Assembly: GCA_043823085.1 (NCBI GenBank)
Contig: JBDRBE010000004.1
Location: 5,510-69,509 of the forward strand
DNA: 64,000 bases
Source of the DNA: Candidatus Levyibacteriota bacterium
GTDB taxonomy: Bacteria; Patescibacteriota; Microgenomatia; Levybacterales; UBA12049
Reading direction: 5' to 3'
Positions 3,077 through 43,461 of this stretch are shown piece by piece. Every line of letters starts with the position of its first letter. Within the stretch, counting starts at the first letter, position 1. Under the pieces are notes generated by a model, which made no database searches, was not told where the DNA came from, and was given only the letters and a program-made list of their open reading frames with translations. A program made the translations under genes and the position numbers.

Positions 3077-3150
3077 GCCGCCATCGTCTAGTGGCCTAGG
3101 ACGTCACGTTCTCAACGTGAAGATCGCGGGTTCGACTCCCGCTGGCGGTA
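3077..3150 (+). tRNA. tRNA-Glu (anticodon CUC)
   Basis: Cloverleaf folds by hand: acceptor gccgcca/tggcggt, D-arm gtc-tagtggcctag-gac, anticodon stem tcacg/cgtga with loop ttCTCaa, T-arm gcggg-ttcgact-cccgc. The D-loop resembles bacterial tRNA-Glu. No CCA is encoded. Confidence 0.8.
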
Positions 3151-3263
3151 CTACAATTTTTCCGATACCTCTTATTGAAAAAATAGTTTATTGATTGTAT
3201 GCTTAAATATTTTCAAGAGTGAGATTAATTGTGTCTTGTTGATATTTCTAGTATAATTTTTGT

Positions 3264-14575: not shown

Positions 14576-15487
14576 ATGAATAAAATTTCGGCAGTTATAA
14601 CCTGTTTTAATGAGGAAAAAAAGATAAAAGATTGTTTGGAGTCAGTCCTTTGGGCAGATGAGATTATTTTGGTTGATAATTCATCGAAAGACAAAACAGT
14701 CGAGATTGTAAAGAAATATACAAAAAATATTTTTAACCAAGAAAACGATCCTGGTGCGATAGATATTTTAAAGAATTTTGGTTTTTCTAAAGCAAGTAGC
14801 GAGTGGATTTTAAGTCTTGATGCCGATGAGAGAGTAACGCCTGAATTAAGAAAAGAAATTGAATCAACAATCAACAACCAGCAATCAGCAATCAACGGCT
14901 ACTGGATTCCGAGAAAAAATATTATTTTTGGTAAATGGATAGAACATACCGGTTGGTATCCTGATTTTCAATTAAGATTGTTTCGAAAAGGGAGAGGAAA
15001 GTTTATTAAGAAACATTTTCATGAAATGCTTGAACTTAATGGTAAAACTGAAAATCTTAATTCTAATTTACTGCATTATAACTATGAAAGTGTTCTGCAG
15101 TTTTTAAACCGTCATGCCAATATTTATGCGCAAAATGAAGTAGAGAATATTTTGGAAAAAGGTTATATTTTTAATTATCTTGATGCAATTCGTTTCCCTT
15201 TTAACGAATTTTTAAGTAGATTTTTCAAAAGAGAAGGATACAAAGATGGGATTCACGGATTAGTGCTTTCGCTTCTAATGGCTTTTTATCATTTGATTAT
15301 CTTTTCGTTAATTTGGGAGAAAGAGAAATTCAAAGAATTGGAAAAAGAAAATATTCTTAAGGCAACGGAAAATGAGTTCAGAAAAGAGTGTAAAGATATT
15401 GGGTTTTGGTTCTTAAATGAGAAGATAAAACAAACGGGCAACCTATTTAGCAAATTTCGGTTAAAAGTAAAACGTAAGTTTTTTTGA
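14576..15487 (+). CDS. Family-2 glycosyltransferase, WaaE/KdtX-like
   Basis: Motifs SAVITCFNEE, ILVDNSSKDKT, SLDADERVTPEL, NGYWIPRKN and WYPDFQLRLFRKG. Paralogs at 19099 and 41143. Confidence 0.75.
   Translation: MNKISAVITCFNEEKKIKDCLESVLWADEIILVDNSSKDKTVEIVKKYTKNIFNQENDPGAIDILKNFGFSKASSEWILSLDADERVTPELRKEIESTINNQQSAINGYWIPRKNIIFGKWIEHTGWYPDFQLRLFRKGRGKFIKKHFHEMLELNGKTENLNSNLLHYNYESVLQFLNRHANIYAQNEVENILEKGYIFNYLDAIRFPFNEFLSRFFKREGYKDGIHGLVLSLLMAFYHLIIFSLIWEKEKFKELEKENILKATENEFRKECKDIGFWFLNEKIKQTGNLFSKFRLKVKRKFF
14862..14896. repeat. Imperfect heptanucleotide tandem repeat (aatcaac/aaccagc/aatcagc, 5 units) inside a GT2 CDS
   Basis: 7-nt periodicity over 35 nt, read directly. Encodes STINNQQSAING just before the NGYWIP motif. 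Confidence 0.6.
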
Positions 15488-16181: not shown

Positions 16182-17141
16182 ATGAAAAAAATCGCAATCG
16201 TTATCCTTCATTTTAATGGAGAAAAAGATACACTTCGATGCTTAGATAGTATTGAACAGTTATCCTGCGAAGCAGGATCTCGCTTCGCGAGGCAAGTTAT
16301 CGTGGTTGATAATGGATCAGATGAAGAATTCAAAGTTCCCGCCTTCGCCCCTTCGACTCCGCTCAGGGCTTCGGCGGGCAAACAAAATTCAATTAAGGAA
16401 GTAAAAGTTATTAGGAATGAAAGAAACTTGGGGTTTGCGGGTGGAAATAATGTCGGAATCAAATACGCGCTTGAAAATGGGGCGGATTACGTTCTAATTC
16501 TCAATAATGATACTTTAGTTGATAAAGGTTTGATTACGGAATTATTAAAAGTTGCAGATTCCGATGAAAAGATTGGAATTGTTGCTCCTAAAATATATTT
16601 TGCCAAAGGATTTGAATTCCATAAAGACCGATACCGTGAAAGCGAACGCGGTAGAATAATTTGGTATGCGGGAGGGATCATGGATTGGAAAAATATTATT
16701 GGGCATCATCGGGGAGTTGATGAGGTTGATAAAGGTCAGTTTGAAAAAGTAGAAGAAACGGATTATGCTACCGGTTGTTGCATGTTAATAAAAAAAGAAG
16801 TATTCGAAATGATAGGCTTTTTGGATAAAAAATATTTTTTATATTATGAAGATAGTGATTTCAGCCAAAGATCAAAATTAGTAGGGTATAAAATAAAATT
16901 TGTCCCAAAAGCGATTGTTTGGCACAAAAATGCGGGTTCGGCCGGAGGTTCGGGTTCTTCAATGCAGGATTATTATATAACTCGAAACCGTTTAATTTTT
17001 GGAATAAAATATGCTTCTCTTAGAGCGAAGTTGGCTTTAATAAAAGAAACCATCAAATTGTTTTTTTCCGGAAGACCGTGGCAAAAAAGAGGTGTTTTTG
17101 ATTTTTATTTAATGAAATTTAATAAAGGCAGTTACCGATAA
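16182..17141 (+). CDS. Family-2 glycosyltransferase (rhamnosyltransferase-like; paralog of 57373) carrying GC-rich in-frame insertions
   Basis: Motifs AIVILHFNGE..VIVVDNGSDE..NLGFAGGNN..ILNNDTLV; C-terminal YYEDSDF. Compared with the 57373 paralog it has extra GC-rich segments at 16265-16294 and 16334-16385. Confidence 0.75.
   Translation: MKKIAIVILHFNGEKDTLRCLDSIEQLSCEAGSRFARQVIVVDNGSDEEFKVPAFAPSTPLRASAGKQNSIKEVKVIRNERNLGFAGGNNVGIKYALENGADYVLILNNDTLVDKGLITELLKVADSDEKIGIVAPKIYFAKGFEFHKDRYRESERGRIIWYAGGIMDWKNIIGHHRGVDEVDKGQFEKVEETDYATGCCMLIKKEVFEMIGFLDKKYFLYYEDSDFSQRSKLVGYKIKFVPKAIVWHKNAGSAGGSGSSMQDYYITRNRLIFGIKYASLRAKLALIKETIKLFFSGRPWQKRGVFDFYLMKFNKGSYR
16258..16301. repeat. GC-rich palindromic in-frame insertion (ctgcgaagcaggatctcgcttcgcgaggca) flanked by 7-bp direct repeat agttatc
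   Basis: Two short hairpins (cctgc-gaa-gcagg; ctcgc-ttc-gcgag) in an AT-rich gene, with agttatc on both sides. Encodes SCEAGSRFARQ, which the paralog lacks. Confidence 0.6.
16327..16392. repeat. GC-rich in-frame insertion (cccgccttcgccccttcgactccgctcagggcttcggcgggc) flanked by direct repeat aattcaa
   Basis: Terminal inverted cccgcc/ggcggg. Shares cccttcgact...ctcagg with the intergenic element at 26779-26834. Encodes PAFAPSTPLRASAGKQ, which the paralog lacks. Confidence 0.55.
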
Positions 17142-19098: not shown

Positions 19099-19863
19099 AT
19101 GAAACTTTCAGCGATTGTTATTGCCAAAAACGAAGAGAATATGATTGCGGATTGCTTAGATAGTCTTTCGTTTTGCGATGAGGTTATCGTTATTGATAAT
19201 GGATCAACTGATCGGACATCGGAAATTGCCAAAAAAATGGGAGCAGAGATATTTATCTGTCAAACAGATGATTTTTCAGAGATGAGAAATTTTGGTCTAT
19301 CTAAGGCAAAAAATGAATGGATTTTATATGTGGATGCGGATGAGCGCGTCACAAGTGAGCTTGTACACGATATCAAATATCAAATATTAAATATCAAAGA
19401 CGTAAATATCACTGCGTTTAATATTAAGAGAAAGAATTTTTATTTTGGTTCGCAAGCGGAGAATGAGTGGCCGTACATAGAACATTTAGAGAGACTGTTT
19501 AAAAAAGAAAATCTGAAAGGTTGGAGGGGAAAACTTCATGAGAGTCCTATTATTGAGGGTAAAGTGGGGGAGTTAGAGGGATTTTTATTGCATTATACTC
19601 ATCAGGATCTTTCTTCAATGCTGGAAAAAACCATCGAGTGGTCAAAAACAGAGGCAGAGTTAAGATTAAAAGCAAATCATCCCAAAATGACCTGGTGGCG
19701 GTTTCCCAGGGTAATGGTAAGTGCTTTTTTAAATTCTTATATCAGGCAAGGCGGATGGAAAGTCGGAACAATGGGGTTAGTTGAAAGCATTTATCAATCT
19801 TTTAGTATTTTTATAACCTACGCCAGGCTTTGGGAGTTACAAAATAGAGAAAATGCAAATTAA
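19099..19863 (+). CDS. Family-2 glycosyltransferase, WaaE/KdtX-like
   Basis: Motifs LSAIVIAKNEE..VIVIDNGSTDRT..YVDADERVTSEL. Paralog of 14576 and 41143. Confidence 0.75.
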   Translation: MKLSAIVIAKNEENMIADCLDSLSFCDEVIVIDNGSTDRTSEIAKKMGAEIFICQTDDFSEMRNFGLSKAKNEWILYVDADERVTSELVHDIKYQILNIKDVNITAFNIKRKNFYFGSQAENEWPYIEHLERLFKKENLKGWRGKLHESPIIEGKVGELEGFLLHYTHQDLSSMLEKTIEWSKTEAELRLKANHPKMTWWRFPRVMVSAFLNSYIRQGGWKVGTMGLVESIYQSFSIFITYARLWELQNRENAN

Positions 19864-25833: not shown

Positions 25834-26781
25834 ATGAATATCAGTATTGTTATTCCGAATTATAATGGGGAAGAGTTATTAGAAAAGAATTTACCAAAAG
25901 TAATAGAAGCAATTTCCGAGTATAATGGCGGCGAGATTGAATTTGTTATAGTCGATGACGGTTCGACGGATGATTCAATTGAGAAAATCAAAAATCAAAA
26001 ATCAAAAATCAAAAATACAAATGTAAAATTAAAAATTATTGAAAATTCGAAGAATTTAGGATTTTCCTCAACAGTTAATCGTGGAGTAAAAGAGTCAATG
26101 GGGGAGATTATTATTCTGCTCAATACAGATGTTATACCAGAGAAGAATTTTTTAGGACCTCTTCTTTTGCATTTTAACGATCCAAATGTTTTTGCTGTTG
26201 GATGTATGGATAAAAGCATAGAGGATGGTAAGGTTATTTTGCGAGGCAGGGGGATTGGCAGATGGGAGAGAGGATTTTTTGTTCACAAGAGAGGGGAGGT
26301 TGATAAGAAAGATACGCTTTGGGTCAATGGGGGCAGTGGCGCTTTTAGGAAATCAATTTGGGATAAGATTGGAGGTTTCAATGAACTTTATAATCCTTTT
26401 TATTGGGAAGATATTGATCTTTCCTATCGTGCACAAAAAATGGGCTATAAAATATTATTTGAACCCAAAAGTATAGTTGTTCACGAGCATGAGAAAGGGA
26501 TTATTAAGAAGAAAATGTCTTTATCAAAAATTAAAACAGTCGCCTATCGGAATCAAATAATTTTTACTTGGTTAAACATCACCGATTTAGATTGGCAGTT
26601 TCAGCATTTTTTTTGGTTGCCCTATCATCTCTTTAAATCTTTGATACACAGGAACAGGGAGTTTTTAATTGGTTTTTTTCAAGCTCTAATTTTACTTCCA
26701 AAGATTATAAAAACATCTTCCAAAATACAGAAGTTATTCGTAAAAAAAGATAAGGAAATTATTGGAGATTTTTTAGAATGA
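25834..26781 (+). CDS. Family-2 glycosyltransferase
   Basis: Motifs ISIVIPNYNGEE..FVIVDDGSTDDS..NLGFSSTVNRG..LLNTDV..YWEDIDLSYR. Confidence 0.75.
   Translation: MNISIVIPNYNGEELLEKNLPKVIEAISEYNGGEIEFVIVDDGSTDDSIEKIKNQKSKIKNTNVKLKIIENSKNLGFSSTVNRGVKESMGEIIILLNTDVIPEKNFLGPLLLHFNDPNVFAVGCMDKSIEDGKVILRGRGIGRWERGFFVHKRGEVDKKDTLWVNGGSGAFRKSIWDKIGGFNELYNPFYWEDIDLSYRAQKMGYKILFEPKSIVVHEHEKGIIKKKMSLSKIKTVAYRNQIIFTWLNITDLDWQFQHFFWLPYHLFKSLIHRNREFLIGFFQALILLPKIIKTSSKIQKLFVKKDKEIIGDFLE
25986..26015. repeat. Perfect heptanucleotide tandem repeat (aatcaaa)x4 inside a GT2 CDS
   Basis: aatcaaa aatcaaa aatcaaa aatcaaa aat read directly. Encodes KIKNQKSKIKN in the linker after the DDGS motif. Confidence 0.8.
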
Positions 26782-26834
26782 CCCTTCGACTTTACTCAGG
26801 CCTTTGGCTCTGAGGCTCAGGCTCGAAGAGGTCA
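26779..26834. repeat. GC-rich imperfect hairpin element at a gene 3' end (tgacccttcga...tcgaagaggtca)
   Basis: Outer inverted repeat tgacccttcga/tcgaagaggtca plus an inner hairpin ctcag-gcctttggct-ctgag. Shares cccttcgact...ctcagg with the in-frame insert at 16337-16382. It spans the stop codon of the 25834 gene. May act as a terminator, but there is no downstream T-run. Confidence 0.55.
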
Positions 26835-26853
26835 TAGTGAGTTAATCGAATCT

Positions 26854-27570
26854 ATGAAATTATCAATTATAATTCCGGTTTACAACGAAGAAGGAACAGT
26901 CGCTGAAATTTTAAAGAGAGTAACAGCTTTAAACATTCCCGGTGTAAACAAAGAAGTAATTATTACAGATGATGGATCAACCGATGCAACGGCATCAATA
27001 ATCTCAAATCTCAAATCTCAAATCTCAAATCTCAAAATAATTTATCACAAAAAAAATCAGGGGAAGGGGGCGGCAGTAAGAACTGGAATTAAACATGCAA
27101 GTGGAGATTATATCTTAATTCAAGACGCAGATTTAGAATATAATCCAAAAGATATTATTAGGCTTTTGATACCTGTCAAAGATAAAATTGCCCAAGTAGT
27201 TTATGGTACAAGGCTAAATAGAATGCCTAATTTTACCAGAGATGAAAGAGAGCCACGTTTCCTGCTTCACTATCTTGGCAATAAAGCATTGAGTTTTATT
27301 ACAAGTTTATTGTACGGGCAATGGATTACAGACATGGAAACATGTTATAAACTTTTTCCCAAAAAATCGTTGGAAAAAATAAAACTTAATTCAAAAAGTT
27401 TTGATTTTGAGCCGGAAATTACTGCCAAACTTCTCAAAAATGGATATAAAATACTGGAGATTCCAATAACAACAAACCCAAGAGGATACAAAGAGGGTAA
27501 AAAATTGAATACTTTTAGGGATGGTTCAATAGCCCTTTGGACATTAATGAAATATCGATTTTTTGATTAA
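26854..27570 (+). CDS. Family-2 glycosyltransferase, Dpm1-like
   Basis: Motifs LSIIIPVYNEE..VIITDDGSTDAT..NQGKGAAVRTG..ILIQDADLEYNP. Confidence 0.75.
   Translation: MKLSIIIPVYNEEGTVAEILKRVTALNIPGVNKEVIITDDGSTDATASIISNLKSQISNLKIIYHKKNQGKGAAVRTGIKHASGDYILIQDADLEYNPKDIIRLLIPVKDKIAQVVYGTRLNRMPNFTRDEREPRFLLHYLGNKALSFITSLLYGQWITDMETCYKLFPKKSLEKIKLNSKSFDFEPEITAKLLKNGYKILEIPITTNPRGYKEGKKLNTFRDGSIALWTLMKYRFFD
27001..27035. repeat. Perfect heptanucleotide tandem repeat (atctcaa)x5 inside a GT2 CDS
   Basis: Read directly. Encodes SNLKSQISNLK at the same linker position as the (aatcaaa)x4 repeat in the adjacent GT2. Confidence 0.8.
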
Positions 27571-31467: not shown

Positions 31468-31532
31468 TTTAGGATTTGCAATGATTTTAATATTATAATA
31501 AAGTAAATATATCATAAGTTCTTGCCCGAGTC

Positions 31533-33224
31533 ATGAGAAAACAATTTATAGCCCTCTTTTTTATCATTCTTGTTGCTTCCTTCCTCCGTTTTTATCAATT
31601 GGGGACAATTCCTGCTGGTTTAACTAATGACGAGGCGAATACGGGCTACGATGCTTTTTCGCTCCTTCTTACCGGTCGCGATCAATGGAATAATTTTTTA
31701 CCGATAACTAATTTTATTGGTTTTGGAGATTATCCTCCGCCGCTCTATAGGTATCTTTCTATTGTTCCTATTTCTCTTTTTGGTTTAAATATGTTTTCAG
31801 TTAGATTTATTTCCGCACTTTCTGGTGTTTTGTCGGTCGTGGTTTTATATTTTTTAATCAAGAAAATTTTTAACCAAAAAGCAGCTATTTTTAGCGCATT
31901 ATCTCTTGCAATTCTTCCCTGGTCTATCGGTTTGAGCAGAGTTGCTATTGAGTCAAATCTGGCAATCCTTTTTTTAATCACTGCTCTTTATTTTGGAATA
32001 GCGCTAAAGTCTGATAAAAGTATTTTCTTTTCTGTCATATTTTTGGTTTTATCAATTTTTACCTATTCTGCCTATACACTTTTTGCGCCTTTGGTTTTTT
32101 TGCTGATTTTGTTTTTTAATTATAAAAAAGTAAAAACAAAGATACTTTTATTTTCGATAATTTTATTTTTATGTCTTTGTCTTCCACTTTTTGTTCATAA
32201 AGGGGCGGCTTCGACGAGATTCTCCCAAATTGGAATCACCCAAAACATAAATAGTATAGGGTTAATGAATGTTTTAAACGATCAAAGGGGACAATGTCTC
32301 AATTCGTTCAATCCTTTGATGTGTAAATTATCGGAAAATAAACCGGTACTTTTTACGGGTGTTTTTTTCAAGAATTATTTGTCCCACTTCTCGCTTAATT
32401 TTTTATACGCCAAAGGGACAGTAACACAGTTTTCGATTTTGGAGGAGAGGGGGTTGGATTATTTATTTTGCATCATTTTTCTTACCTTAGGTCTATATTT
32501 CCTCATTGCAAAAAATAAAAATACCAAAATTTCCTTAGTGGTAATTCTTCTTTTTCTTTTTTCAGCGATTCCTGATTCTCTAACAGGAGATGGAAATTAT
32601 TCCAGGGCTTCAATGATGCAGCCTTTCATCGCTATTTTGAATGGATTGGGTTTAGCTTTTCTTTTTGCTTTATTAAATAAGATAAAAAATAAAAATTTAA
32701 AGATTTTAGGAATGTTTTTTATAGCCTTTTTAATTATGTTTTCAATATCCTCGTTTTTTGTTAACTATTTAACTTACTTTAAAAATAATTATGCAATGTA
32801 TTCGCAATATGGCTATAAAAATTTGATGGAATATGTCGGTAAGGTAAAAAATGACTATGAAAGAATATACATATCTAAGCATTTAAATGATACCAAGCAA
32901 TACATATATTATTTATTTTTTAATAAATATGATCCAAGAAAATTCCAGACAAAAACGAACATAGGATATCATTTGGAAGATAACGGGTGGGTCTCCGTAG
33001 ATAGGATTGATAACGTTTACTTTGTACAAAACTTGCCACTAATCTCTAAAAAATTGACCAATTTGAACAATAACATTCTGTATATTTCGAATCCTGTTGA
33101 TTTTCCAAAAGGAGTGAAAACAGAATTTATAACGAAAGATAAGTTAGAAAACGTTATTTTTAAAGCAGTTAAAAAAGAAAATTTGATAGAATATTATCAG
33201 GAATTTGATTATTTAAATGAGTAA
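31533..33224 (+). CDS. ArnT/PMT-like GT-C glycosyltransferase (GT39/83-like) D1
   Basis: LRFYQLGTIPAGLTNDEANTGYDAFSLLLTGRDQW..DYPPPLYRY..FGLNMFSVRFISALSGV is a classic N-terminal DE-motif loop of the 4-amino-arabinose/mannosyl transferase family. Confidence 0.75.
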   Translation: MRKQFIALFFIILVASFLRFYQLGTIPAGLTNDEANTGYDAFSLLLTGRDQWNNFLPITNFIGFGDYPPPLYRYLSIVPISLFGLNMFSVRFISALSGVLSVVVLYFLIKKIFNQKAAIFSALSLAILPWSIGLSRVAIESNLAILFLITALYFGIALKSDKSIFFSVIFLVLSIFTYSAYTLFAPLVFLLILFFNYKKVKTKILLFSIILFLCLCLPLFVHKGAASTRFSQIGITQNINSIGLMNVLNDQRGQCLNSFNPLMCKLSENKPVLFTGVFFKNYLSHFSLNFLYAKGTVTQFSILEERGLDYLFCIIFLTLGLYFLIAKNKNTKISLVVILLFLFSAIPDSLTGDGNYSRASMMQPFIAILNGLGLAFLFALLNKIKNKNLKILGMFFIAFLIMFSISSFFVNYLTYFKNNYAMYSQYGYKNLMEYVGKVKNDYERIYISKHLNDTKQYIYYLFFNKYDPRKFQTKTNIGYHLEDNGWVSVDRIDNVYFVQNLPLISKKLTNLNNNILYISNPVDFPKGVKTEFITKDKLENVIFKAVKKENLIEYYQEFDYLNE

Positions 33225-34878
33225 GTTTTTTAATTGGAAGTTAATATTAATTTTTATAATTATTCTTGCGGGATTTTTAAGATTTTATAAGCTTTCATCA
33301 AATCCTCCTTCTCTGACATGGGATGAGGCGGCTTGGGGATATAATGCTTATTCTTTGGGAATTGATGCAAGAGATGAATTCGGCAGATTTCTGCCTTACG
33401 ATTATCTTGAATCATTCGGCGATTTTAAACCTCCTGCCTACGCGTATTTAGACATATTGCCTATAAAAATTTTTGGACTTAATGAATTTGGCGTTCGGTT
33501 TCCTTCAGCGCTTTTTGGCGTGCTAACAGTTTTAGCTACTTATTTTTTGGTAAGAAGAATATTTCCTAATGCGAAAAAATTTTCAATTTTCAATTTTCAA
33601 TTTTCAATAGCGGAGATATCAGCTTTTATTCTTGCTATATCCCCGTGGCATATTTTGCTTTCCCGTGCCGCATTTGAAGCAAACGTGGCTACATTTTTTC
33701 TGGTTACGGGAGTCTGGCTGTTTTTAGCAGGAGCCCATGAGAAAAAATGGTGTTTGCCTTTCTCTATTTTTTTCTTTGTCCTTTCCCTTTATGCCTTTAA
33801 CACTTCAAGGATTGTAGCGCCTCTTCTGGTTTTATTATTAATGATTGGTCTTAGAAAACAGCTTTTAGAGCGAAAAAAAGAAGCAATAATAGCTTGTATT
33901 GTCGGAGTAATTCTTGTTTTGCCAATAGCACGATTTTTACTTTCGCCTCAGGCAAGTCTTCGATTTCGCGAGGTAAATATTTTTTCGGATGCAAGCGTAA
34001 TTAAAACAGTTAATCAGGAAATTAAAAATGATAATAATGCTTTTTGGTCAAAAATTATTCATAACAGGCGTTTTGCATATGGGGTTGAGTATTTTAAACA
34101 TTATTTTGACAACCTTAGTCCCGACTTTTTGTTTATAAAAGGGGATGGTAATCCAAAATTCTCGATTCAGACAGTTGGGCAGATGTATCTTTGGGAAATA
34201 CCCTTTTTTATCGGAGGAATTTTGTTCATTTTTCGAAAAAGGCAAGGATATTGGTGGATTGTTCCGTTCTGGCTTGTTTTAGGAATTATTCCGGCAGCAA
34301 CCGCTCGAGAAACGCCGCATGCATTAAGAATAGAAACAACTCTGCCAACGTTTCAAATTCTAACAGCCATAGGCTTAGCGACGGCAATAGAATTTTTATT
34401 GGCAGTGAAGAATAAAGGATTGATTACAAAACTATTAAAACTATTTGTGATATGTTATTCGCTATTCGCTATTTTCAATTTTTCATATTTTTATCATGAT
34501 TATTTTACTCATTATCCGATACAATTTTCCGGAGAATGGCAATATGGATACAAAGAATCAATTGCTTTCGTTTCCGAAAATTTAAGTAAATATGATAAGG
34601 TTGAAATTACCGACGCACTTGGTAGACCTTATATTTATTATTTATTTTACACAAAAGAAAATCCCCAGGATTTTAGAGCATCTTTAAAAGTCAAAAGAGA
34701 TGTTTTTGGCTTTGTTAATGTAACTGGATTTGGTAAATATGAGTTTAAAAGTAATCTATCGATTGATAAAAATACCCTTTTTATTAACTCGCCTGTCAAC
34801 GTGCCAAAAAATGCGGAAGCGCTAAAAACGTTTTACCTTTTAGACGGTAATTCTATACTTTCTGCGTATTCATTATGA
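33217..34878 (+). CDS. ArnT/PMT-like GT-C glycosyltransferase D2
   Basis: LRFYKLSSNPPSLTWDEAAWGYNAYSLGIDARDEFG..FKPPAYAYL..FGLNEFGVRFPSALFGV. Tandem paralog of D1 and D3. Confidence 0.75.
   Translation: MSKFFNWKLILIFIIILAGFLRFYKLSSNPPSLTWDEAAWGYNAYSLGIDARDEFGRFLPYDYLESFGDFKPPAYAYLDILPIKIFGLNEFGVRFPSALFGVLTVLATYFLVRRIFPNAKKFSIFNFQFSIAEISAFILAISPWHILLSRAAFEANVATFFLVTGVWLFLAGAHEKKWCLPFSIFFFVLSLYAFNTSRIVAPLLVLLLMIGLRKQLLERKKEAIIACIVGVILVLPIARFLLSPQASLRFREVNIFSDASVIKTVNQEIKNDNNAFWSKIIHNRRFAYGVEYFKHYFDNLSPDFLFIKGDGNPKFSIQTVGQMYLWEIPFFIGGILFIFRKRQGYWWIVPFWLVLGIIPAATARETPHALRIETTLPTFQILTAIGLATAIEFLLAVKNKGLITKLLKLFVICYSLFAIFNFSYFYHDYFTHYPIQFSGEWQYGYKESIAFVSENLSKYDKVEITDALGRPYIYYLFYTKENPQDFRASLKVKRDVFGFVNVTGFGKYEFKSNLSIDKNTLFINSPVNVPKNAEALKTFYLLDGNSILSAYSL
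33579..33606. repeat. Perfect heptanucleotide tandem repeat (attttca)x4 inside an ArnT-like CDS
   Basis: Read directly. Encodes KFSIFNFQFSI. Confidence 0.8.
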
Positions 34879-36503
34879 GTAAAAAAATTATTATTATTTT
34901 ATTTCTAATTCTTGCGATTGCTACAGTTTTACGTTTTTATAAACTTGGTGATATCCCGCCGTCACCGGATTGGGATGAAGTTGCTTTAGGTTATGATGCA
35001 TATTCTATAATTCATACAGGACGTGATGAATACGGAAAGTTTTTACCGGTTGTTTTGCGATCATTTGATGATTATAAACCGGCTTTATATGCTTATCTTT
35101 CTGTCCCGTCGGTTTTCTTTTTTGGACTAAATGAATTTAGCGTTCGGTTTCCATCCGCCTTATTAGGTGTTTTAACTGTTTTTGCAACATTTTTTCTTGT
35201 AAAGGAATTATTTAAAAGAAACGAGATAGCGCTTCTTGCATCATTTTTTTTGGCGATTTCTCCCTGGCATATTCAGTTTTCAAGAGTTGGTTTCGAATCA
35301 AATATAGGTGTAGCTTTTAATGTTTTTATGGCGCTTTTTTTTATTAAAGCATTTAGAAAACCCTACTTTTTACTTTTTTCTGCGTTTTTTGCCGGCTTAA
35401 ATCAGTATATTTATCAAAGCGATCGGGTTTTTACGCCACTTTTACTCTTAGCGCTGGTCATTATTTATTGGAAAGACTTGTTTAAGATTTCTAAAAAATA
35501 TCTTTTGACATCGGTGATTTTAGGACTAATTGTCGTTTTGCCAATGATTATTTACATCGCAACCGATAAACAAGCTCTTCTTCGTGTTTCTGGAACAAGT
35601 ATTTTTTCAAGCCAAACCGAATTGCTCAAAAATGACATTCCAAAACTTCTTCGCGATACGGCAAAGAATGATAAAATTGGATTAATTCTTGACAACAGAC
35701 GTTTCACTTTTGCTAAAATAATAGCATCAAATTATCTTTCGCATTTTAATCTCAATTGGCTTTTTATAACCGGTGATATTGCAAGACATCATGCTCCGCA
35801 AATGGGCCTTTTGTATCTTTTTGAATTACCCTTTCTTTTTATTGGGTTATACATCTTTATTTTTGGTCAATACTCAAAAAAAACAAAGTTATTAATAATT
35901 GCTTGGTTTTTGATTACTCCAATTCCGGCCTCAATTACGACCGGCGTTCCGCATGCAGTAAGGACTTTAAATTTTCTTCCGACATTTCAAATTTTTATAG
36001 CCATAGGATTAATCACAGCGATAAAATTACTATCAAACATTAAGTTTTGGAAAATATTTGCTATTTGCTATTTGCTATTTGCTATCTTTAATTTTTCATA
36101 TTATCTCAACCAGTATTTTGTGCAATTGAATTACTTTAACTCACAGGAATGGCAGTATGGTTATAAACAAGCTGTTAGTGAGGTAAAAAATATTGGGGGG
36201 AATTATCCAAAAATTGTTGTTTCGGACAAAGAGCCATTAGATAAATCTTACATGTTTTTTCTATTTTATCTTCAATATCCGCCTTTTGAATATCAAAAAG
36301 TTGGTCAATATCAATCAGGTGGATTTGCCGCCCATCATAATTTTGATAAATATGAATTCAGGCCAATAGATTGGCAAAAAGATTCTAAAGCAAAAAACGT
36401 TTTATATATTGGAACACCTGGAGAATTTCCGCCAGATATTGATGCTTTAAAAGTAATTTATAATAAAGACGGCACGCCAGCGATAAAATTAGTTAGGACT
36501 TAA
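34875..36503 (+). CDS. ArnT/PMT-like GT-C glycosyltransferase D3
   Basis: LRFYKLGDIPPSPDWDEVALGYDAYSIIHTGRDEYG..YKPALYAYL..FGLNEFSVRFPSALLGV. Confidence 0.75.
   Translation: MSKKIIIILFLILAIATVLRFYKLGDIPPSPDWDEVALGYDAYSIIHTGRDEYGKFLPVVLRSFDDYKPALYAYLSVPSVFFFGLNEFSVRFPSALLGVLTVFATFFLVKELFKRNEIALLASFFLAISPWHIQFSRVGFESNIGVAFNVFMALFFIKAFRKPYFLLFSAFFAGLNQYIYQSDRVFTPLLLLALVIIYWKDLFKISKKYLLTSVILGLIVVLPMIIYIATDKQALLRVSGTSIFSSQTELLKNDIPKLLRDTAKNDKIGLILDNRRFTFAKIIASNYLSHFNLNWLFITGDIARHHAPQMGLLYLFELPFLFIGLYIFIFGQYSKKTKLLIIAWFLITPIPASITTGVPHAVRTLNFLPTFQIFIAIGLITAIKLLSNIKFWKIFAICYLLFAIFNFSYYLNQYFVQLNYFNSQEWQYGYKQAVSEVKNIGGNYPKIVVSDKEPLDKSYMFFLFYLQYPPFEYQKVGQYQSGGFAAHHNFDKYEFRPIDWQKDSKAKNVLYIGTPGEFPPDIDALKVIYNKDGTPAIKLVRT
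36056..36083. repeat. Perfect heptanucleotide tandem repeat (atttgct)x4 inside an ArnT-like CDS
   Basis: Read directly. Encodes IFAICYLLFAIF. Confidence 0.8.
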
Positions 36504-36506
36504 ATA

Positions 36507-37994: not shown

Positions 37995-39487
37995 AAAAAT
38001 TTTTGTTATTAACTCTTTTTATCTTACTTTTTTTTATTGCTTTATTTCCTAGGTCGGTTGAAGTCTTGAATCATAATCCGATTTTTGGATTTGATCAGGG
38101 AAGAGATTATTTGGCTGTTAGAAGTATTGTTGTTGACGGAAAATTTACTTTAATCGGTGCGGAAATCGGAGCAGGAAGTGCCGGAATAAACGGAATCTTC
38201 CAAGGACCTTTTCATTATTATTTTTTGGCAATACCGTTTATTATTTTTAGAGGCGATCCCTATGGCGGTCTTTTATTAATGTTTTTACTAAGTATTGCTA
38301 CAGTCTTTTTTAGCCTTTATTTTGGAAAAAAAATGTTTGGATTTTTTGGGGGTTTAATGATGGCGTTGCTTGTGGCAGTATCCCCGCCTCTAATTTCTCA
38401 AGCTCGATTTATTTGGAATTCTCATCAGTCATCTTTATTTGTTCTGCTTAGTTTTTATTTTACTTATTACATTAGAGAAAAAAAGTATAAAAACATTTTT
38501 TTAGCAGCTTTTTTTGCAGGTTTTATTTATAATTTTGAAATTGCGATTGCAATTCCGATGTGTGTGGCAATTTTTATCTATTCGGTTTTAATCTTTCGCT
38601 TTAAGCAGTTAAAGCAGTATTTTTTTATGATACTTGGATTTGTTTTGGCGTTTTTGCCAATGATCATGTTTGAAGCCCGGCATGGTTTCATAGGATTTAG
38701 AGGATTATTAAATTATATTCTTGCACCTAACAGAAACAGTTTCCCACTTGATATGGGAAAGCAATTAATGGATCATTTTAATTCGTTTAAATATAATTTT
38801 TTGGGTACATTTCCGGGTTCTCCGATTCCCTTATGGATGTTGGCTTTAATTATTATTCTCCCGGCTATTTACTTTCTAATAACCGAAAAGAACAAACTCT
38901 TAAAATCTTTTATTTTTTATTTATTCATTTTATTAGTTTCAAGTTTTTTTGTTTTCTCTTTTTTAAAAAATGCAGTTTGGCAGTTTTATCTAATAGAATT
39001 AAATTTTGCATACATAGTATTTTTTGTCTATGTTATTTACTCTTTATTTCAAAGAAAAGCTTATTATTTTTTACCGATCCCTTTGATTTTATCTGTCATT
39101 TTTTTATGGCAGGGAACAATCAGCGCCTATAAAATTTCAAAATACGACTATTCTGATTATGGAGGAACAGAAAAAATGAGCGGAAAGCTCGATGCGATTG
39201 ATTATATCTATAAGGATGCAGAAGGCAGATCATTTGGTGTATTTTTCTTTGCTCCGCCGATTTACACTTATCCCTACGATTATCTTTTAGTATGGTATGG
39301 AAAGGAAAAATATAGTTATTTGCCGTATCATGAAAAGAAAGGGACATTTTATCTTTTGATAGAGCCAGACAGTGCTCGTCTTTGGTATAAGGGTTGGCTT
39401 GAAACCGTTATTAAAACTGGCCAAATTATAGAAACAAAGACGTTACCAAGCGGTTTTATTATCCAAAAAAGATTTGGCGAAATCTAA
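37991..39487 (+). CDS. GT-C fold membrane protein, PMT_2-like DQxRD variant (C3)
   Basis: Start at MKKFLLL (ATGA overlap with the upstream stop). FGFDQGRDYLAVRSIVVDGKFTLIGAEIGAGSAG..GPFHYYF; polytopic. Confidence 0.55.
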   Translation: MKKFLLLTLFILLFFIALFPRSVEVLNHNPIFGFDQGRDYLAVRSIVVDGKFTLIGAEIGAGSAGINGIFQGPFHYYFLAIPFIIFRGDPYGGLLLMFLLSIATVFFSLYFGKKMFGFFGGLMMALLVAVSPPLISQARFIWNSHQSSLFVLLSFYFTYYIREKKYKNIFLAAFFAGFIYNFEIAIAIPMCVAIFIYSVLIFRFKQLKQYFFMILGFVLAFLPMIMFEARHGFIGFRGLLNYILAPNRNSFPLDMGKQLMDHFNSFKYNFLGTFPGSPIPLWMLALIIILPAIYFLITEKNKLLKSFIFYLFILLVSSFFVFSFLKNAVWQFYLIELNFAYIVFFVYVIYSLFQRKAYYFLPIPLILSVIFLWQGTISAYKISKYDYSDYGGTEKMSGKLDAIDYIYKDAEGRSFGVFFFAPPIYTYPYDYLLVWYGKEKYSYLPYHEKKGTFYLLIEPDSARLWYKGWLETVIKTGQIIETKTLPSGFIIQKRFGEI

Positions 39488-39488
39488 T

Positions 39489-41132
39489 ATGAAACGCTTA
39501 TTGTTTCTATTCATCTTTATTGTTTTTTCTCTTATTCCAATCATTGGTTTTTTTCATGGTGGTTTACCCCTTACTCATGATGGTCAAGATCATGTGGCAA
39601 GAATTGCCAATTTTTACGAGAATTTATCGCAAGGTGTTATTATTCCGCGTTGGGCGCCAAATCTTAATTGGGGTTATGGACATCCGATTCTAGAATTTTT
39701 ATATCCTTTACCTTCTTATATTGCTTCTTTTTTCCATTTCTTGGGTTTTTCCTTAATCGACTCAACAAAACTTGTTTTTGGATTGGGAATGGTTTTGTCC
39801 ACACTTTTTATGTTTCTTTGGCTGTCAACTTTTTTGGGAAAGCTATCCGCTTTTTTTGGTGCAATTTTATATAGCTATGCTCCGTATCGATTCGTTGAAC
39901 TTTATGTTAGGGGAGATATTGGAGAAAATTTAGCTTTTGCCTTTATTCCTCTGACACTCTTTTTCGTTTATAGATTTTACCAATCGCAAAACTATAAACA
40001 TATTTTTTTTGGTTCTCTTTCTCTTGCCCTGCTAATTCTTTCTCACAACGCGATAAGTTTAATGTTTATGCCATTTTTAATTTTTTATTGTTTTTATCTT
40101 GTTTGGCAATCGCCTTTGTGGAGGCTATTCGCCACGCGTTATTTGCTATTTGCTATTTTTGGTTTTGGTTTATCAGCATTTTTCTGGATTCCAGGGCTTT
40201 TTGAAGCGAAATATACGCTTCGCAATATCGTTACTGCCGGTGAATATTTAAATCGTTTCGCAAATCCTCGTGAACTTTTATATGGTTCATGGAGCTATGG
40301 GGGAAGCGGACAATTTTCTTTACAATTAGGAATTATTCAGTGGATCTCTTTAATTCTATCGCCGTTGGTGGTTTTTTATTTTTACAAAAGAAAAGAAAAA
40401 AAATACCTCTTTGTTTTAGGGCTAATTATTTATACTTTTTTTGCCATCTTTTTTATGCTTTCGCAATCGAACTTTATTTGGTTAAAAGCTATGCTTTTAC
40501 AAAATTTTCAATTTCCCTGGCGCTTTATCGCAATTACAGTTTTTTCAACTTCAGTTCTTGGGGCAATTTCAATTTCTGTTTTATCTAAAAAAATAAAGTT
40601 TATTTTAGTAGGAATTTTATTGGTTTTAATTCTTTTAATAAGCAAAGATTATTGGCAGGCAAATGGTTATTTTTACAAGCCGGACAGTTTTTTTACGGAT
40701 ATTTATAATGGTACAACAGATACCGGGGAGAGTGCACCTATTTGGTCGATTAGATTTATGGAAACTAGAGCAAAAGAGCCGTTGGAGGTTATTTCAGGTC
40801 TCGCAAAGATTAATCAAATAAAAAGAACGTCGGTTAATCATTTTTACAATGTTGAAGCTTTAGAAAAAACGAGGCTTTTGGAAAATACTTTATATTTTCC
40901 CGGTTGGGAAATTTTAGTTGACAAAAGAGCGGTTTCAATTCAGTTTCAGGACCCGAGCTTTAGAGGTTTAATGACCTTCCAAATAGATAAAGGCAAGCAT
41001 ACGGTGGAAGTTGTTTATAAGGAAACAAAGCTAAGGATGATTGCGGACATTATTTCATTTATCAGTTTAATAATTTTGTTATTTGGGCTTTACCTTGTAT
41101 CTGACAATAAATTGTTCGTAAAAAAGATATAA
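39489..41132 (+). CDS. YfhO-related large membrane protein, family B (B3)
   Basis: Start at MKRLLF just after the upstream stop. THDGQDHVARIANFYENL..IPRWAPNLNWGYGHPILEFLYP; C-terminal YFPGWEILVDKR..QIDKGKHTVEVVY plus a terminal TM. Confidence 0.6.
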   Translation: MKRLLFLFIFIVFSLIPIIGFFHGGLPLTHDGQDHVARIANFYENLSQGVIIPRWAPNLNWGYGHPILEFLYPLPSYIASFFHFLGFSLIDSTKLVFGLGMVLSTLFMFLWLSTFLGKLSAFFGAILYSYAPYRFVELYVRGDIGENLAFAFIPLTLFFVYRFYQSQNYKHIFFGSLSLALLILSHNAISLMFMPFLIFYCFYLVWQSPLWRLFATRYLLFAIFGFGLSAFFWIPGLFEAKYTLRNIVTAGEYLNRFANPRELLYGSWSYGGSGQFSLQLGIIQWISLILSPLVVFYFYKRKEKKYLFVLGLIIYTFFAIFFMLSQSNFIWLKAMLLQNFQFPWRFIAITVFSTSVLGAISISVLSKKIKFILVGILLVLILLISKDYWQANGYFYKPDSFFTDIYNGTTDTGESAPIWSIRFMETRAKEPLEVISGLAKINQIKRTSVNHFYNVEALEKTRLLENTLYFPGWEILVDKRAVSIQFQDPSFRGLMTFQIDKGKHTVEVVYKETKLRMIADIISFISLIILLFGLYLVSDNKLFVKKI

Positions 41133-41142
41133 TAAAGGTATT

Positions 41143-41910
41143 ATGCCAAAGATTTCAGTCGTCTTAGCTGTTCTTAACGAGGAAAAAAATCTTAGCACTT
41201 GTCTTGATTCGGTTAAAGATTTTGCCGATGAAATAGTCATTGTTGATGGCAGTTCTACCGATAAAACCGTTGAGATTGCAAAAAAGTACGGTGCAAGAAT
41301 TGAAATAACTGCCAATCTGCAAAACTTCCATATCAATAAACAAAAGGCAATAGATATGGCAAATGGAGAATGGGTTTTGCAACTTGACGCGGACGAAAGA
41401 GTCACACCGTCGCTTTGCGACGAAATCAAAAATCAAATATCAAAAATCAAAGACAATGAGGTGAATGGGTACTGGATTCCGAGAAAAAATTGGTTCTTGG
41501 GAAGATTTTTGATGAAGGGCGGCCAATATCCGGATTATCAATTAAGATTTTATAAAAAAGGAAAAGGCAGACTGCCGCAAAAGGATGTTCATGAACAGAC
41601 AATTGTTCAAGGGCAGGTTGGATATTTAAAGAATCCGCTTGTTCATTTTGCCGACCCAAACTTTTCCCGTTATCTTTTACGTTTCAACCGATACACGGAT
41701 TTTATGGCAAATGAATTAAAAAATAAAAAAATTGGATTAAATCCTCTGATTCCTATCCGATATCTTTTAATTTCACCAGTTTGGTGGTTTCTTTTAACTT
41801 ACATTAGACATAAAGGGTTTGTAGATAGTTGGCAGGGATTTGTTTTTTCTTTTTTTTCCGCTTTGAGATTTCCTGTTTCTTATGTAAAATATATTAAGCT
41901 ACTCTTTTAA
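41143..41910 (+). CDS. Family-2 glycosyltransferase, WaaE/KdtX-like
   Basis: Motifs ISVVLAVLNEE..IVIVDGSSTDKT..QLDADERVTPSL..NGYWIPRKN..YPDYQLRFYKKG. Confidence 0.75.
   Translation: MPKISVVLAVLNEEKNLSTCLDSVKDFADEIVIVDGSSTDKTVEIAKKYGARIEITANLQNFHINKQKAIDMANGEWVLQLDADERVTPSLCDEIKNQISKIKDNEVNGYWIPRKNWFLGRFLMKGGQYPDYQLRFYKKGKGRLPQKDVHEQTIVQGQVGYLKNPLVHFADPNFSRYLLRFNRYTDFMANELKNKKIGLNPLIPIRYLLISPVWWFLLTYIRHKGFVDSWQGFVFSFFSALRFPVSYVKYIKLLF
41424..41451. repeat. Heptanucleotide tandem repeat (aatcaaa)x4 with one variant unit, inside a GT2 CDS
   Basis: aatcaaa aatcaaa tatcaaa aatcaaa. Same unit as 25986-26013. Encodes EIKNQISKIKDN before NGYWIP. Confidence 0.7.
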
Positions 41911-41920
41911 AGATTTAAAT

Positions 41921-42931
41921 ATGAAAATTTTAGTTACTGGCGGAGGAGGCTATATTGGAAGTTTTATGACCAAAAGACTTCTAGATGATGGTTTTGAAGT
42001 TGTTGTGGCCGACAGCTTCGAAAGAGGATATAAGGAAGTTGTAGATAAAAGAGCAAAATTATTAATTGGAAATTTACTTGACAAAGAATTCGTTAAAAAT
42101 ATTTTTTTGTCAGATGATATTGAAGCTGTTATTAATTTTGCAGGATACATCTCAATGGCCGAGTCGGTTGAAAATCCTGGAATTTACTTTGAAAATAACG
42201 TTTTTGGAGCATTAAATCTTTTAGAGGAAATGAGAAAAAGAGAAATAAAGAAATTTATATTTTCTTCAACAGCAGGCGTTTATGGAAATCCTAAAAGTTT
42301 GCCAATTCCTGAAGATCATCCCAAAAATCCTACAAATCCATATGGAGAAAGTAAATTAATGGTTGAAAAAATTCTTTTATGGTATAAGCCCTTTATAAAT
42401 TTTGTCAGTCTTCGATACTTTAACGCGGCAGGTGCATCTTTTGATGCAACTTTAGGAGAAAATCACAAACCGGAAACCCACATTATTCCAAATGCAATAA
42501 ACGCAGCACTTACTAATTCCGAATTTACTCTTTATGGCGATGATTACAATACTCCCGATGGTACCTGCATAAGAGATTATATTCATGTAGTAGATTTGGT
42601 TGATTCTCATGCGTTGGCTTTAAAAAAGCTGCAAACAGAAAATGGCGGCCAGGCTTTTGGCGGGCAGGGTTTTTTCTATAATGTCGGAACAGGAAAAGGT
42701 TATTCAAATAAAGAGGTGTTTGAAATGGTAAAGAAAATTTCAGGAATTGATTTTAAAGTTAATATTTCAGGAAGGAGATCGGGCGATGCGGAAAAATTAA
42801 TAGCCGACCCGACAAAAATTAAAAATGAACTCATGTTTATTCCGAAATATTCAGACCTTGAAACTTTGGTTAAAACCGCATGGCAATGGCACTCCAAAAT
42901 ATCAAATACCAAATACCAAATATCAAAATGA
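41921..42931 (+). CDS. galE: UDP-glucose 4-epimerase (GalE-type extended SDR)
   Basis: Motifs MKILVTGGGGYIGS, YGESKLMVEKIL (YxxxK), LRYFN, GDDYNTPDGTCIRDYIHVVDL match E. coli GalE closely. Confidence 0.8.
   Translation: MKILVTGGGGYIGSFMTKRLLDDGFEVVVADSFERGYKEVVDKRAKLLIGNLLDKEFVKNIFLSDDIEAVINFAGYISMAESVENPGIYFENNVFGALNLLEEMRKREIKKFIFSSTAGVYGNPKSLPIPEDHPKNPTNPYGESKLMVEKILLWYKPFINFVSLRYFNAAGASFDATLGENHKPETHIIPNAINAALTNSEFTLYGDDYNTPDGTCIRDYIHVVDLVDSHALALKKLQTENGGQAFGGQGFFYNVGTGKGYSNKEVFEMVKKISGIDFKVNISGRRSGDAEKLIADPTKIKNELMFIPKYSDLETLVKTAWQWHSKISNTKYQISK
42898..42925. repeat. Heptanucleotide tandem repeat (aataYca)x4 at the galE 3' end / start of the next gene
   Basis: aatatca aatacca aatacca aatatca read directly. 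Encodes the galE C-terminal tail ISNTKYQISK. Confidence 0.7.
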
Positions 42932-43461
42932 AGAACAGGCTTCTCTGGGTATTCCTTTTTTTTACTATCACGCTTATGCTCTTTTTATCTTCTCAAGCTC
43001 ATGCTGGGTCTTCTTATGTTCTTCCTTATCCTTCGTCTATGCCTGGAAGTATTTTTTATAAAGTTAATTTAATAAAAGATAAAATATTAGAATATTGGTA
43101 TTTTGGAAATTTTGGTCAGTTTGAATATAATCAAAAGCTCTCGGATAAATATTTAGTTGAGGCAAAAACGCTTTTTGAGTACAGTCAATATCTTTTGGCA
43201 TGTTCTGCCCTTAAAAAATCTAATGAATATTTTGAAAATATTTATCCGAATCTTATTCAAGCCAAAAAAGAAAATAAAAATATATCCAGAAAGCAGCAAT
43301 TATTTAAAGAAGAAGCCCTAAAACATATTGAGGAATTAATTAAGTTAGAAAAAGAAGTTCCAAACAGCTTTTATTGGCAGCCTGAAAAAACCTCACCAAC
43401 AATCCTTAATTTAAAACAATTGATACAAGAATCTATAAACATTAGAAAAACATATTTATGA
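42928..43461 (+). CDS. Hypothetical secreted protein (signal peptide, alpha-helical)
   Basis: Start at MKNRLLWVFLFFTITLMLFLSSQAHA (signal peptide, AHA-G cleavage site), ATGA overlap with the galE stop. No family recognised. Confidence 0.5.
   Translation: MKNRLLWVFLFFTITLMLFLSSQAHAGSSYVLPYPSSMPGSIFYKVNLIKDKILEYWYFGNFGQFEYNQKLSDKYLVEAKTLFEYSQYLLACSALKKSNEYFENIYPNLIQAKKENKNISRKQQLFKEEALKHIEELIKLEKEVPNSFYWQPEKTSPTILNLKQLIQESINIRKTYL

Follow-up and report, generated by a model that had tools for sequence, protein, structure and literature searches.

Heptanucleotide repeats within glycosyltransferase genes of a Candidatus Levyibacteriota bacterium: phase-variation switches, or microsatellites that the enzymes tolerate?

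Introduction

When a tandem repeat with a non-triplet unit lies inside a gene, does it switch the gene on and off, or is it merely tolerated by the encoded enzyme? The question is raised by a 64,000-nt stretch of DNA from a Candidatus Levyibacteriota bacterium (contig JBDRBE010000004.1, positions 5,510 to 69,509), a member of the candidate phyla radiation (CPR). This whole stretch is termed the window here, and positions are numbered within it. Two adjacent family-2 glycosyltransferase (GT2) genes, GT2a and GT2b, each carry a perfect array of 7-nt units. A sequence-only reading of this DNA had proposed that the two arrays are slipped-strand phase-variation switches. The original observation is real and stronger than first stated; as a whole, that interpretation is partly supported. 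Probably the arrays are in-frame heptanucleotide microsatellites that arose by slippage in parts of glycosylation enzymes where indels are tolerated. Selection would keep them in frame, and rare turnover of units, recombination over short patches and small insertions would renew them.

The two arrays and their place in the protein

GT2a (25834..26781, + strand, 315 aa) and GT2b (26854..27570, +, 238 aa) are intact open reading frames (ORFs) that match PF00535. The GT2a array is a perfect AAAATCA x4.7 (25984..26016, +), with degenerate units that run on to 26036, and the GT2b array is a perfect AATCTCA x5.3 (27000..27036, +). Tandem Repeats Finder (TRF) assigns period 7 to both, with 7.7 copies and 85% matches at 25984-26036, and 5.3 copies and 100% matches at 27000-27036. 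AAAATCA is a rotation of aatcaaa and AATCTCA of atctcaa, the repeats first reported, and their presence in two adjacent GT2 genes is thereby confirmed. Both arrays are in frame and start a few residues past the DDGSTD motif: at residue 51 in GT2a, where the translation is KIKNQKSKIKN (residues 51-61), and at residue 49 in GT2b, where it is IISNLKSQISNLK (residues 49-61). The two proteins are 38% identical over the first 100 aa by BLASTP and their arrays align together, in agreement with the earlier statement that the repeats occupy the same spot in both genes.

An assembly artefact was considered and rejected, as the arrays (30-40 nt) are shorter than assembly k-mers and independent assemblies reproduce them. 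A structured-RNA role of the arrays was also rejected, with a fold of 0 kcal/mol and no Rfam match in 14-50 kb.

GT2b is similar to PF00535 (1.3e-36), ArnC (3e-18), the archaeal dolichol-phosphate mannose synthase (DPMS; 9e-18) and the GtrB-like sll0501 (1e-12). With a modelled GT-A fold and a DxD motif (D91-A92-D93) that is invariant in its orthologs, it appears to fit the Dpm1/ArnC/GtrB-like GT2 class. The protein stops shortly past the catalytic domain; ArnC, GtrB and archaeal DPMS have a C-terminal membrane anchor.

Where in the fold does the array fall? The AlphaFold model of GT2b (mean predicted local distance difference test score 87.6, predicted template modelling score 0.86) shows an alternating strand-helix topology, with a helix at residues 46-54, a loop at 55-59 and a strand at 60-64, and the array residues align to ArnC ELMVKASQEADSH with one single-residue gap. 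On this model the array is predicted to code not for a linker, as had been supposed, but for a stretch of the GT-A fold that runs from the last part of the second Rossmann helix through the loop into the first part of strand 3. Among 119 GT2b orthologs, all 40 deleted residues (40/40) and 141 of 144 inserted ones are located at residues 51-59, with length changes of -7 to +16 aa. Judged from these alignments, residues 51-59 are the one indel-tolerant site of the GT2b enzyme.

Same site, different units

A Candidatus Levyibacteriota metagenome-assembled genome encodes a protein identical to GT2b (P0001; proteins are numbered P and loci L below), and the next relative of GT2b is 78% identical. 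The related loci are from Levybacteria, Roizmanbacteria, Woesebacteria and other Patescibacteria. Does the periodicity reside in the protein or in the DNA? Opposite the window peptide ISNLKSQISNLK, orthologs have ISNFKFQISNFK, ISNIKYQISNIK, ISNFQFPISNFQ, IQNSKFKIQN, EIRNSKFEIRN and EIRNTKYEIRN, among others, and each of these peptides arises from a different 7-nt unit translated in all three frames. The pairs of residues F,F / L,S / I,Y covary exactly as one base of the unit predicts; thus the periodicity belongs to the DNA and not to the protein.

The extent of this pattern was measured by scoring each 12-residue window of each ortholog against all stop-free pure heptamer translations. A pure 7-nt unit is fitted at 10/12 or better by 42 of 121 sequences (the query and the identical P0001 included), with background windows at 3-6/12. 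The best fits per protein cluster at residues 45-55 and involve 13 or more canonical units. In ortholog DNA all arrays are in frame; those of L083 (GAAATTC x4.9) and L106 (AATTTCC x4.3) are perfect, and related in-frame arrays are found in L002, L005, L122, L082, L001 and L087.

Distant GT2b orthologs carry ordinary, non-repetitive sequence of equal length at the array site, and hence the array is not an added insertion. The top 120 homologs of GT2b are mostly exactly 238 aa long (the mode). Comparison of orthologous loci, which the sequence-only reading had put forward as a check on switching, thus yields arrays and proteins of equal length in most related genomes, which speaks against a switch. 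GT2a shows a similar picture, the nearest orthologs having arrays or remnants at the array site and distant ones an ordinary helix. Other GT2 subfamilies have arrays at the same fold position (AAATCTC x4.9 in L028, Woesebacteria; AGCAAAC in L012/L098). Further array sites are the DADE...GYW segment (L131, GTCCTCA x4.7) and the region near residue 200 of ~775-aa YfhO-like proteins (L002, L089, L100). The DADE-type site is permissive as well, with +20 to +35 aa in some relatives.

Do the arrays behave as switches?

The architecture is that of a contingency locus. The 7-nt units lie at codons 49-61 of GT2a/GT2b, and a change of one or two units leaves a product of 59-81 aa. The earlier statement that the unit is not a multiple of 3 and that gain or loss of one unit breaks the frame is correct; GT2a would be cut to 61-71 aa and GT2b to 59-81 aa. 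Among the array-bearing genes of the window, 9 of 10 are truncated within ~5-35 codons when one or two units are added or removed, the exception being an epimerase gene with its array in the last ten codons.

Are there any OFF alleles? The window and all loci together contain 34 distinct arrays, 25 of them in ORFs that are open in the same frame on both sides, 5 intergenic or at a contig edge, and 4 flagged as frame-switch candidates. Two of the flagged arrays (L009, L135) proved to lie across gene junctions, from the stop of one gene into the start of the gene after it, and another (L131, 13131) is non-coding, with a unit that contains a stop; the fourth (L022) is in a Chloroflexota locus of 65% GC. 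A homology-based comparison of 18 island proteins with all loci produced no frameshift junction in 986 protein-locus pairs.

Copy number was also compared at the consensus level among independent assemblies of five related species, and no difference was found at any array. For the window's own organism, exact look-ups with the GT2a and GT2b proteins matched no recorded contig. Assemblies of the P0041 species have an identical GT2a array (AATTTCA x5) in 8/8 cases, and a GT2b array with the window's AATCTCA unit is identical in 10/10, the latter by construction. The AATTCAA and ATGGAAA arrays of the P0034 species are each identical in 3/3. The P0021/P0012 and P0006 species show no indels, and their 5.6-unit GT2b arrays are identical in 3/3. 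The P0037 species (10 assemblies) has 98 single-nucleotide polymorphism (SNP) columns in 20.7 kb and a single 11-nt indel that lies off the arrays, which are degenerate here and offer a weak test. Three arrays (AATTTCA, AATTCAA and ATGGAAA) are compared free of query selection; the identity of the GT2b arrays (3-10 assemblies) is largely by construction.

Protein lengths lead to the same point. In ten 90%-identity clusters all members match the length of the representative, save one of 177 aa. This member, at first a candidate for a protein that starts past the array, is C-terminally truncated at residue ~170, far from the array. Inactivating variants do occur among single-species assemblies, none of them at arrays: a TGG->TAG change in YfhO of L175 relative to L174, a split YfhO (L170:6811-9069) and a GT2b truncated at ~170 in L187 (P0125).

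Array length is relevant here as well. The documented heptanucleotide phase-variable tracts of Haemophilus influenzae have 13-38 units, with 14 in the ORF that has an observed frameshift, and three units served only as a screening threshold (PMC2651432). The window tracts, at 4.7 and 5.3 units, are below the range of these proven switches. Possible three-unit changes in orthologs consist of two losses of 7 aa, with no pure gain of 7 aa. The site tolerates large changes in length, yet variants of plus or minus three units are almost absent, which indicates that slippage is rare on an evolutionary time scale. Frequent ON/OFF switching is not what the tracts show, as neither OFF alleles nor copy-number variants are present in the assemblies. 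Switching at a low rate is conceivable, though it is not the likely state of affairs.

Turnover by recombination and GC-rich inserts

How do different units come to occupy the same codons? Some pairs of proteins are near-identical outside residues 44-64 and unrelated within them. Two Hainich aquifer strains (L186 and L082) offer a view of this at the DNA level, as they are ~100% identical over 4.2 kb save for one patch in GT2b (L186:4200-4350). The patch is gap-free, ~130-150 nt long and 71-82% identical; it starts ~10-15 nt upstream of the array, and 100% identity returns after it. It exchanges an AAATATC-type for an AATTCAG-type array of equal length. By its sequence the patch is a short recombination or conversion tract derived from a diverged allele. 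The gene downstream of GT2b in this pair is also mosaic (84-94% identity). Imperfect arrays, in addition, contain single variant units and period-14 substructures, which point to duplications of units that would each break the frame.

Insertions represent another type of change. In 27 of the 119 GT2b orthologs there is an insertion inside the array, with 3 elsewhere. The longer inserts are rich in G, R, S and A; at the DNA level they are GC-rich hairpins in a genome of 32% GC, e.g. a 30-nt insert with a 9-bp stem in L086 and inserts of ~60 nt in L003 and L085. The L086 insert adds exactly 30 nt, without a 7-nt target duplication. The proteins P0025 and P0107 come from a single sample, share 96% identity and differ by such a GC insert. 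Several inserts have the 3' motif CTTCGCG(A/G)GGCAAG in common (peptide ...FARQ/SARQ/AGKQ). In the window, a GC-rich hairpin is inserted between AATTCAA units at 16338..16383 (+), right past DNGSD in the GT2 ORF 16182..17141, which is the same structural site as that of the GT2a/GT2b arrays. The peptide SCEAGSRFARQ at 16263-16295 is nearly equal to the P0002 insert. A GGAAGAT array (48539..48593, +) in the family-4 glycosyltransferase (GT4) ORF 48097..49164 is split by the GC-rich hairpin CCCGCCTGCCGGACGGGCAG, with the inserted block at 48553-48575. Short (20-60 nt) in-frame GC-rich hairpins or G-rich blocks are also present at 42636-42678 and in L091, and a Berkelbacteria locus (L023, 13727-13765) has an intergenic array followed by a similar GC-rich block. 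Do arrays attract these inserts? Heptamers shared by both flanks show no excess at 370 GC islands of low-GC loci (3.0% vs 2.6% at random sites). Both types of change may persist at permissive sites only, which would be enough to account for the co-location.

The 72-nt spacer between GT2a and GT2b has a GC-rich palindrome (26778..26835, +; RNA fold -29 kcal/mol, z -3.1), which may belong to one class with the in-frame GC inserts. It was ruled out as a canonical terminator, as no T-run follows, and around GT2a/GT2b neither a terminator-like site nor a promoter signal above chance was detected.

Short GC-rich palindromes in AT-rich genomes are familiar as the Rickettsia palindromic elements and the GC clusters of yeast mitochondria. 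The inserts resemble these in being short GC-rich palindromes of an AT-rich genome that are found in frame in coding genes and are present or absent among close relatives. They are, however, much shorter (20-60 nt) and constitute a candidate family only.

Other arrays in the window and in related loci

Are GT2a and GT2b exceptional? Perfect arrays were scanned at periods 4-12, with 200 dinucleotide-preserving shuffles of the window as the null. Five period-7 arrays of at least 4 copies are present in the window, and there are none in any of the shuffles (0/200) and none at periods 4-6 or 8-12. With at least 3 copies there are likewise five at period 7 (shuffle mean 0.005), and each other period has one or none. 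Chance is thereby excluded as their source. Once mismatches are allowed, at least 10 window genes have period-7 arrays, with at least 8 different units. The focus of the sequence-only reading on two genes was therefore too narrow, although the arrays that it singled out are real. These arrays lie between 14.5 and 44 kb, and window arrays of at least 3.4 units are all within ORFs. Soluble enzymes have A-rich units, membrane helices T-rich ones.

GT2 ORFs with an array past the motif DADERVT are 14576..15487 (AATCAAC-type x4.7, imperfect, 14862..14894, +), 19099..19863 (ATATCAA x3.6, 19370..19394, +, where TRF also gives a period-14 substructure) and 41143..41910 (AAATCAA x4.1, 41423..41451, +). 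Genes of membrane proteins follow the same pattern: perfect arrays are found in a PMT-type membrane transferase ORF, 33217..34878 (AATTTTC x4.4, 33578..33608, +), in the PMT_2-type ORF 34875..36503 (TATTTGC x4.4, 36055..36085, +) and in ORF 43458..44603, a membrane protein with no Pfam match (TTTTTAT x4.6, 43620..43651, +); a TATTTGC-type x3 array (40138..40158, +) is located in ORF 39474..41132, a PMT/GT-C-type membrane transferase. The epimerase ORF 41921..42931 has AAATACC/AAATATC x4.4 (42897..42927, +) in its final 10 codons, where the array overlaps the listed start of ORF 42880..43461. Arrays across a gene junction, that is, across the stop of one gene and the next start, thus occur at window 42897-42927 and also at L009:9502-9535 and L135:5723-5758. 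A unit change at such a junction would affect protein termini or translational coupling and would not truncate the protein.

In 187 related loci, arrays of at least 4 perfect copies are found at period 7 only, save two at period 9 and one at period 4. Density is highest in the window (5 per 64 kb); the other CPR loci have 10 per 642 kb, and other low-GC loci, 543 kb in total, have none. All in-ORF arrays in 50 CPR loci (16/16) are in glycosylation-type genes, which represent 76% of ORF length (p=0.013, with non-independent sites and a small comparison set). Long arrays are also seen outside the CPR at higher GC, at L051:15200-15294 and L135:11-115 (TCCGTCC x13.6 and CCTCTGA x14.7; Akkermansiaceae and an unassigned contig), where they sit in short ORFs or at a contig edge.

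A glycosylation island with GT2, GT4, YfhO and PMT_2 genes, flippases and sugar-modifying enzymes takes up almost all of the window (3.2 to 64 kb). Six tandem PMT/PMT_2-type paralogs (31533-41132), together with at least four YfhO-type paralogs (6724-9132, 19853-22198, 23455-25830 and 29047-31515), form an unusually large membrane glycosyltransferase battery. The gene order of the island is kept in other Levybacteria (L161, L181, L188). Its left border is a tRNA-Glu (CTC) gene at 3077-3151, after a partial Lon protease gene (18-848). Two intergenic GC-rich stretches (798-855 and 1556-1600) have CTCCACGCCCC...CCCCCAAAAGCGGA in common and possibly represent a dispersed repeat element.

Comparison with known systems

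Heptanucleotides are the most abundant class of longer-unit simple sequence repeats in most bacterial genomes, and polymerase slippage rather than function is held responsible, with examples that are mostly intergenic (Mrazek 2007, as summarised in PMC4679880 and PMC4692102). The arrays of the window resemble this longer-unit class (LSSR, unit 5-11) in the excess of period 7 over other periods 4-12, in having ~4-5 units and in needing no dedicated function. The cases described there, on the other hand, are mainly intergenic and from large genomes of free-living bacteria, whereas the window tracts belong to a CPR bacterium with a small genome, lie within ORFs where all three frames are used, and stay at orthologous codons as the unit changes. 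The window tracts belong to this class, and it is their setting that differs, not their kind.

The hmw1A/hmw2A tracts of H. influenzae and the in-ORF (AATTTTG)14 of strain PittAA are similar in their A/T-rich 7-nt unit, in their association with surface-structure genes and in the possibility of a frame shift in an ORF (PMC2651432). They differ in having 13-38 units and in being strain-variable, one of them frameshifted; the hmw tracts, moreover, are in promoters and modulate transcription (PMC2651432). Phase-variable glycosyltransferase genes of Haemophilus (lic/lgt), Neisseria and Campylobacter, with tetranucleotide or poly-G tracts, also have a non-triplet repeat in the 5' part of the ORF and several such genes per glycan locus (PMC6321876, PMC8437040). 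Unlike these, the window genes show no strain length polymorphism or frequent OFF alleles, and both unit length and type of organism are different.

Heptamer repeats that favour about four units in tandem are known from the cyanobacterial STRR (short tandemly repeated repetitive) sequences, from TAACTGA in Beggiatoaceae and from GGGNATC in Xanthomonas/Nostoc (PMC4679880, PMC4692102). In these families a genome has one fixed unit, the repeats are mostly intergenic, and regulatory or G-quadruplex roles have been proposed (PMC4679880, PMC4692102). The window arrays, by contrast, have many units (at least 8 in the window and at least 13 at one site), are coding and are unstructured (0 kcal/mol). 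A literature search found no paper in the library covered that ties simple sequence repeat phase variation or heptamer repeats to CPR bacteria, and a FEBS J 2025 paper (PMC12871928) does not address non-triplet DNA units.

Origin and maintenance: the explanations weighed

How might the microsatellites have arisen and been kept? Replication slippage, which favours 7-nt units in bacteria, would create the tracts and now and then renew them, acting on A-rich DNA that codes for a change-tolerant surface segment of the GT-A fold. As 7 is not a multiple of 3, a tract is read in all three frames and gives rise to a peptide with a 7-residue period, e.g. ISNLKSQ. Selection would retain only the frame-preserving states, and the length of GT2b would thereby be held at 238 aa. 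Turnover would have three sources, namely the rare gain or loss of a unit, recombination of short patches with diverged alleles, and small in-frame insertions rich in GC, and in this way orthologs would come to have different units at the same codons. Slippage would then be the generating process, the encoded peptide would be close to neutral and the rate of any switching would be low. The earlier argument that perfect copies signify recent slippage or selection stands in its first part, in that the purity of the arrays and the unit turnover among orthologs show a slippage-type homogenisation; selection for a switch is unsupported.

Several points weigh against the slippage explanation. GT2b proteins with an array do not exceed array-free orthologs in length, and simple expansion does not explain the origin of the tracts. 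Differing perfect units at one site require repeated homogenisation via out-of-frame intermediates or rare three-unit steps. Some arrays have a period-14 substructure of two alternating units (window 19370-19411 and the GT2b site of L122), which implies past two-unit duplications, each of them frame-breaking. The confinement of arrays to glycosylation genes hints at a gene-class bias, and consensus assemblies cannot reveal minority length variants.

Could the tracts be contingency switches after all? One-unit gain or loss by slipped-strand mispairing would turn each glycosyltransferase OFF or ON, second-order selection for mutability would keep the tracts pure, and the result would be a combinatorial surface glycan of an episymbiont. 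This is unlikely, though there are several observations in its favour. Most tracts have their non-triplet unit in the first third of the ORF, and gaining or losing one or two units soon leads to truncation; one surface-glycan island contains at least 10 genes with tracts; the tracts are pure and persistent at orthologous sites across species; 16/16 arrays are in glycosylation-type genes (p=0.013); and the period-14 substructures imply earlier frame-breaking events. On the other side are the 4-5 units as opposed to 13-38 in demonstrated heptanucleotide tracts, the ON state of 25/25 in-ORF arrays, the 0 frameshift junctions in 986 comparisons and a copy number that is the same at every array among assemblies of the five species, all of which fail to bear out the phase variation first proposed. 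Pure three-unit variants are almost absent, although the site tolerates -7 to +16 aa, the inactivated alleles of relatives are due to a nonsense SNP or to breaks elsewhere in the gene, and some arrays are ineffective by their place (the last 10 epimerase codons, or late in membrane proteins). Somewhat less likely still is the extended form of this idea, in which low-rate switches kept by selection for mutability make up a surface-glycan 'phasome' of at least 10 genes, conserved across Levybacteria and other Microgenomates, with the arrays serving in addition as hotspots of recombination and insertion through which the same enzymes diversify.

Alternatively, the arrays might be DNA-level elements, kept as, or made together with, landing pads or recombination hotspots for GC-rich hairpins and short conversion tracts, much like in-frame mobile palindromes, rather than products of plain slippage. 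Hairpins within arrays or remnants (48539-48593, 16338-16383, L086, L003, L085, L091) and beside the intergenic L023 array are consistent with this, as are the 27/119 orthologs with in-array insertions relative to 3 elsewhere, the recurrent 3' motif, the P0025/P0107 difference and the start of the L186/L082 recombination patch at the array. The absence of any excess of flanking heptamers at the 370 GC islands and the exact 30-nt L086 insert, without target duplication, argue in the opposite direction; permissive sites alone also explain the coincidence, and no transposase or mobilising gene has been identified, no search having been aimed at one. On balance, such an origin is improbable. Selection at the protein level, for a functional K/N/Q-rich linker or an amphipathic helix with the DNA periodicity as a by-product, would suit a helix-loop of a conserved fold whose length is mostly conserved. 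Yet the peptide varies (ISNLKSQ, ISNFKFQ, ISNIKYQ, IQNSKFK, IRNSKFE, IRNTKYE) and its residue pairs change with one base of the DNA unit, distant orthologs are non-repetitive at the site, and -7 to +16 aa are tolerated there; the K/N/Q-rich linker, which the sequence-only reading had named as an alternative to switching, can be given hardly any credence. The slippage-born microsatellite thus stays the preferred explanation.

Biological meaning

If the tracts were switches, host-attached CPR bacteria with large surface glycosylation islands would vary their surface in a pathogen-like manner, and the phasome, if real, would be the first contingency-locus system in CPR episymbionts. As in-frame microsatellites the tracts have another significance. 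Peptides such as ISNLKSQISNLK are DNA-driven, and annotators and protein-family modellers should not take them for conserved motifs. The array marks the only indel-tolerant site of the enzyme, where it is co-located with short recombination tracts and GC-rich mini-insertions. A non-triplet microsatellite can long persist at one codon window inside an enzyme fold, its unit changing and its length kept.

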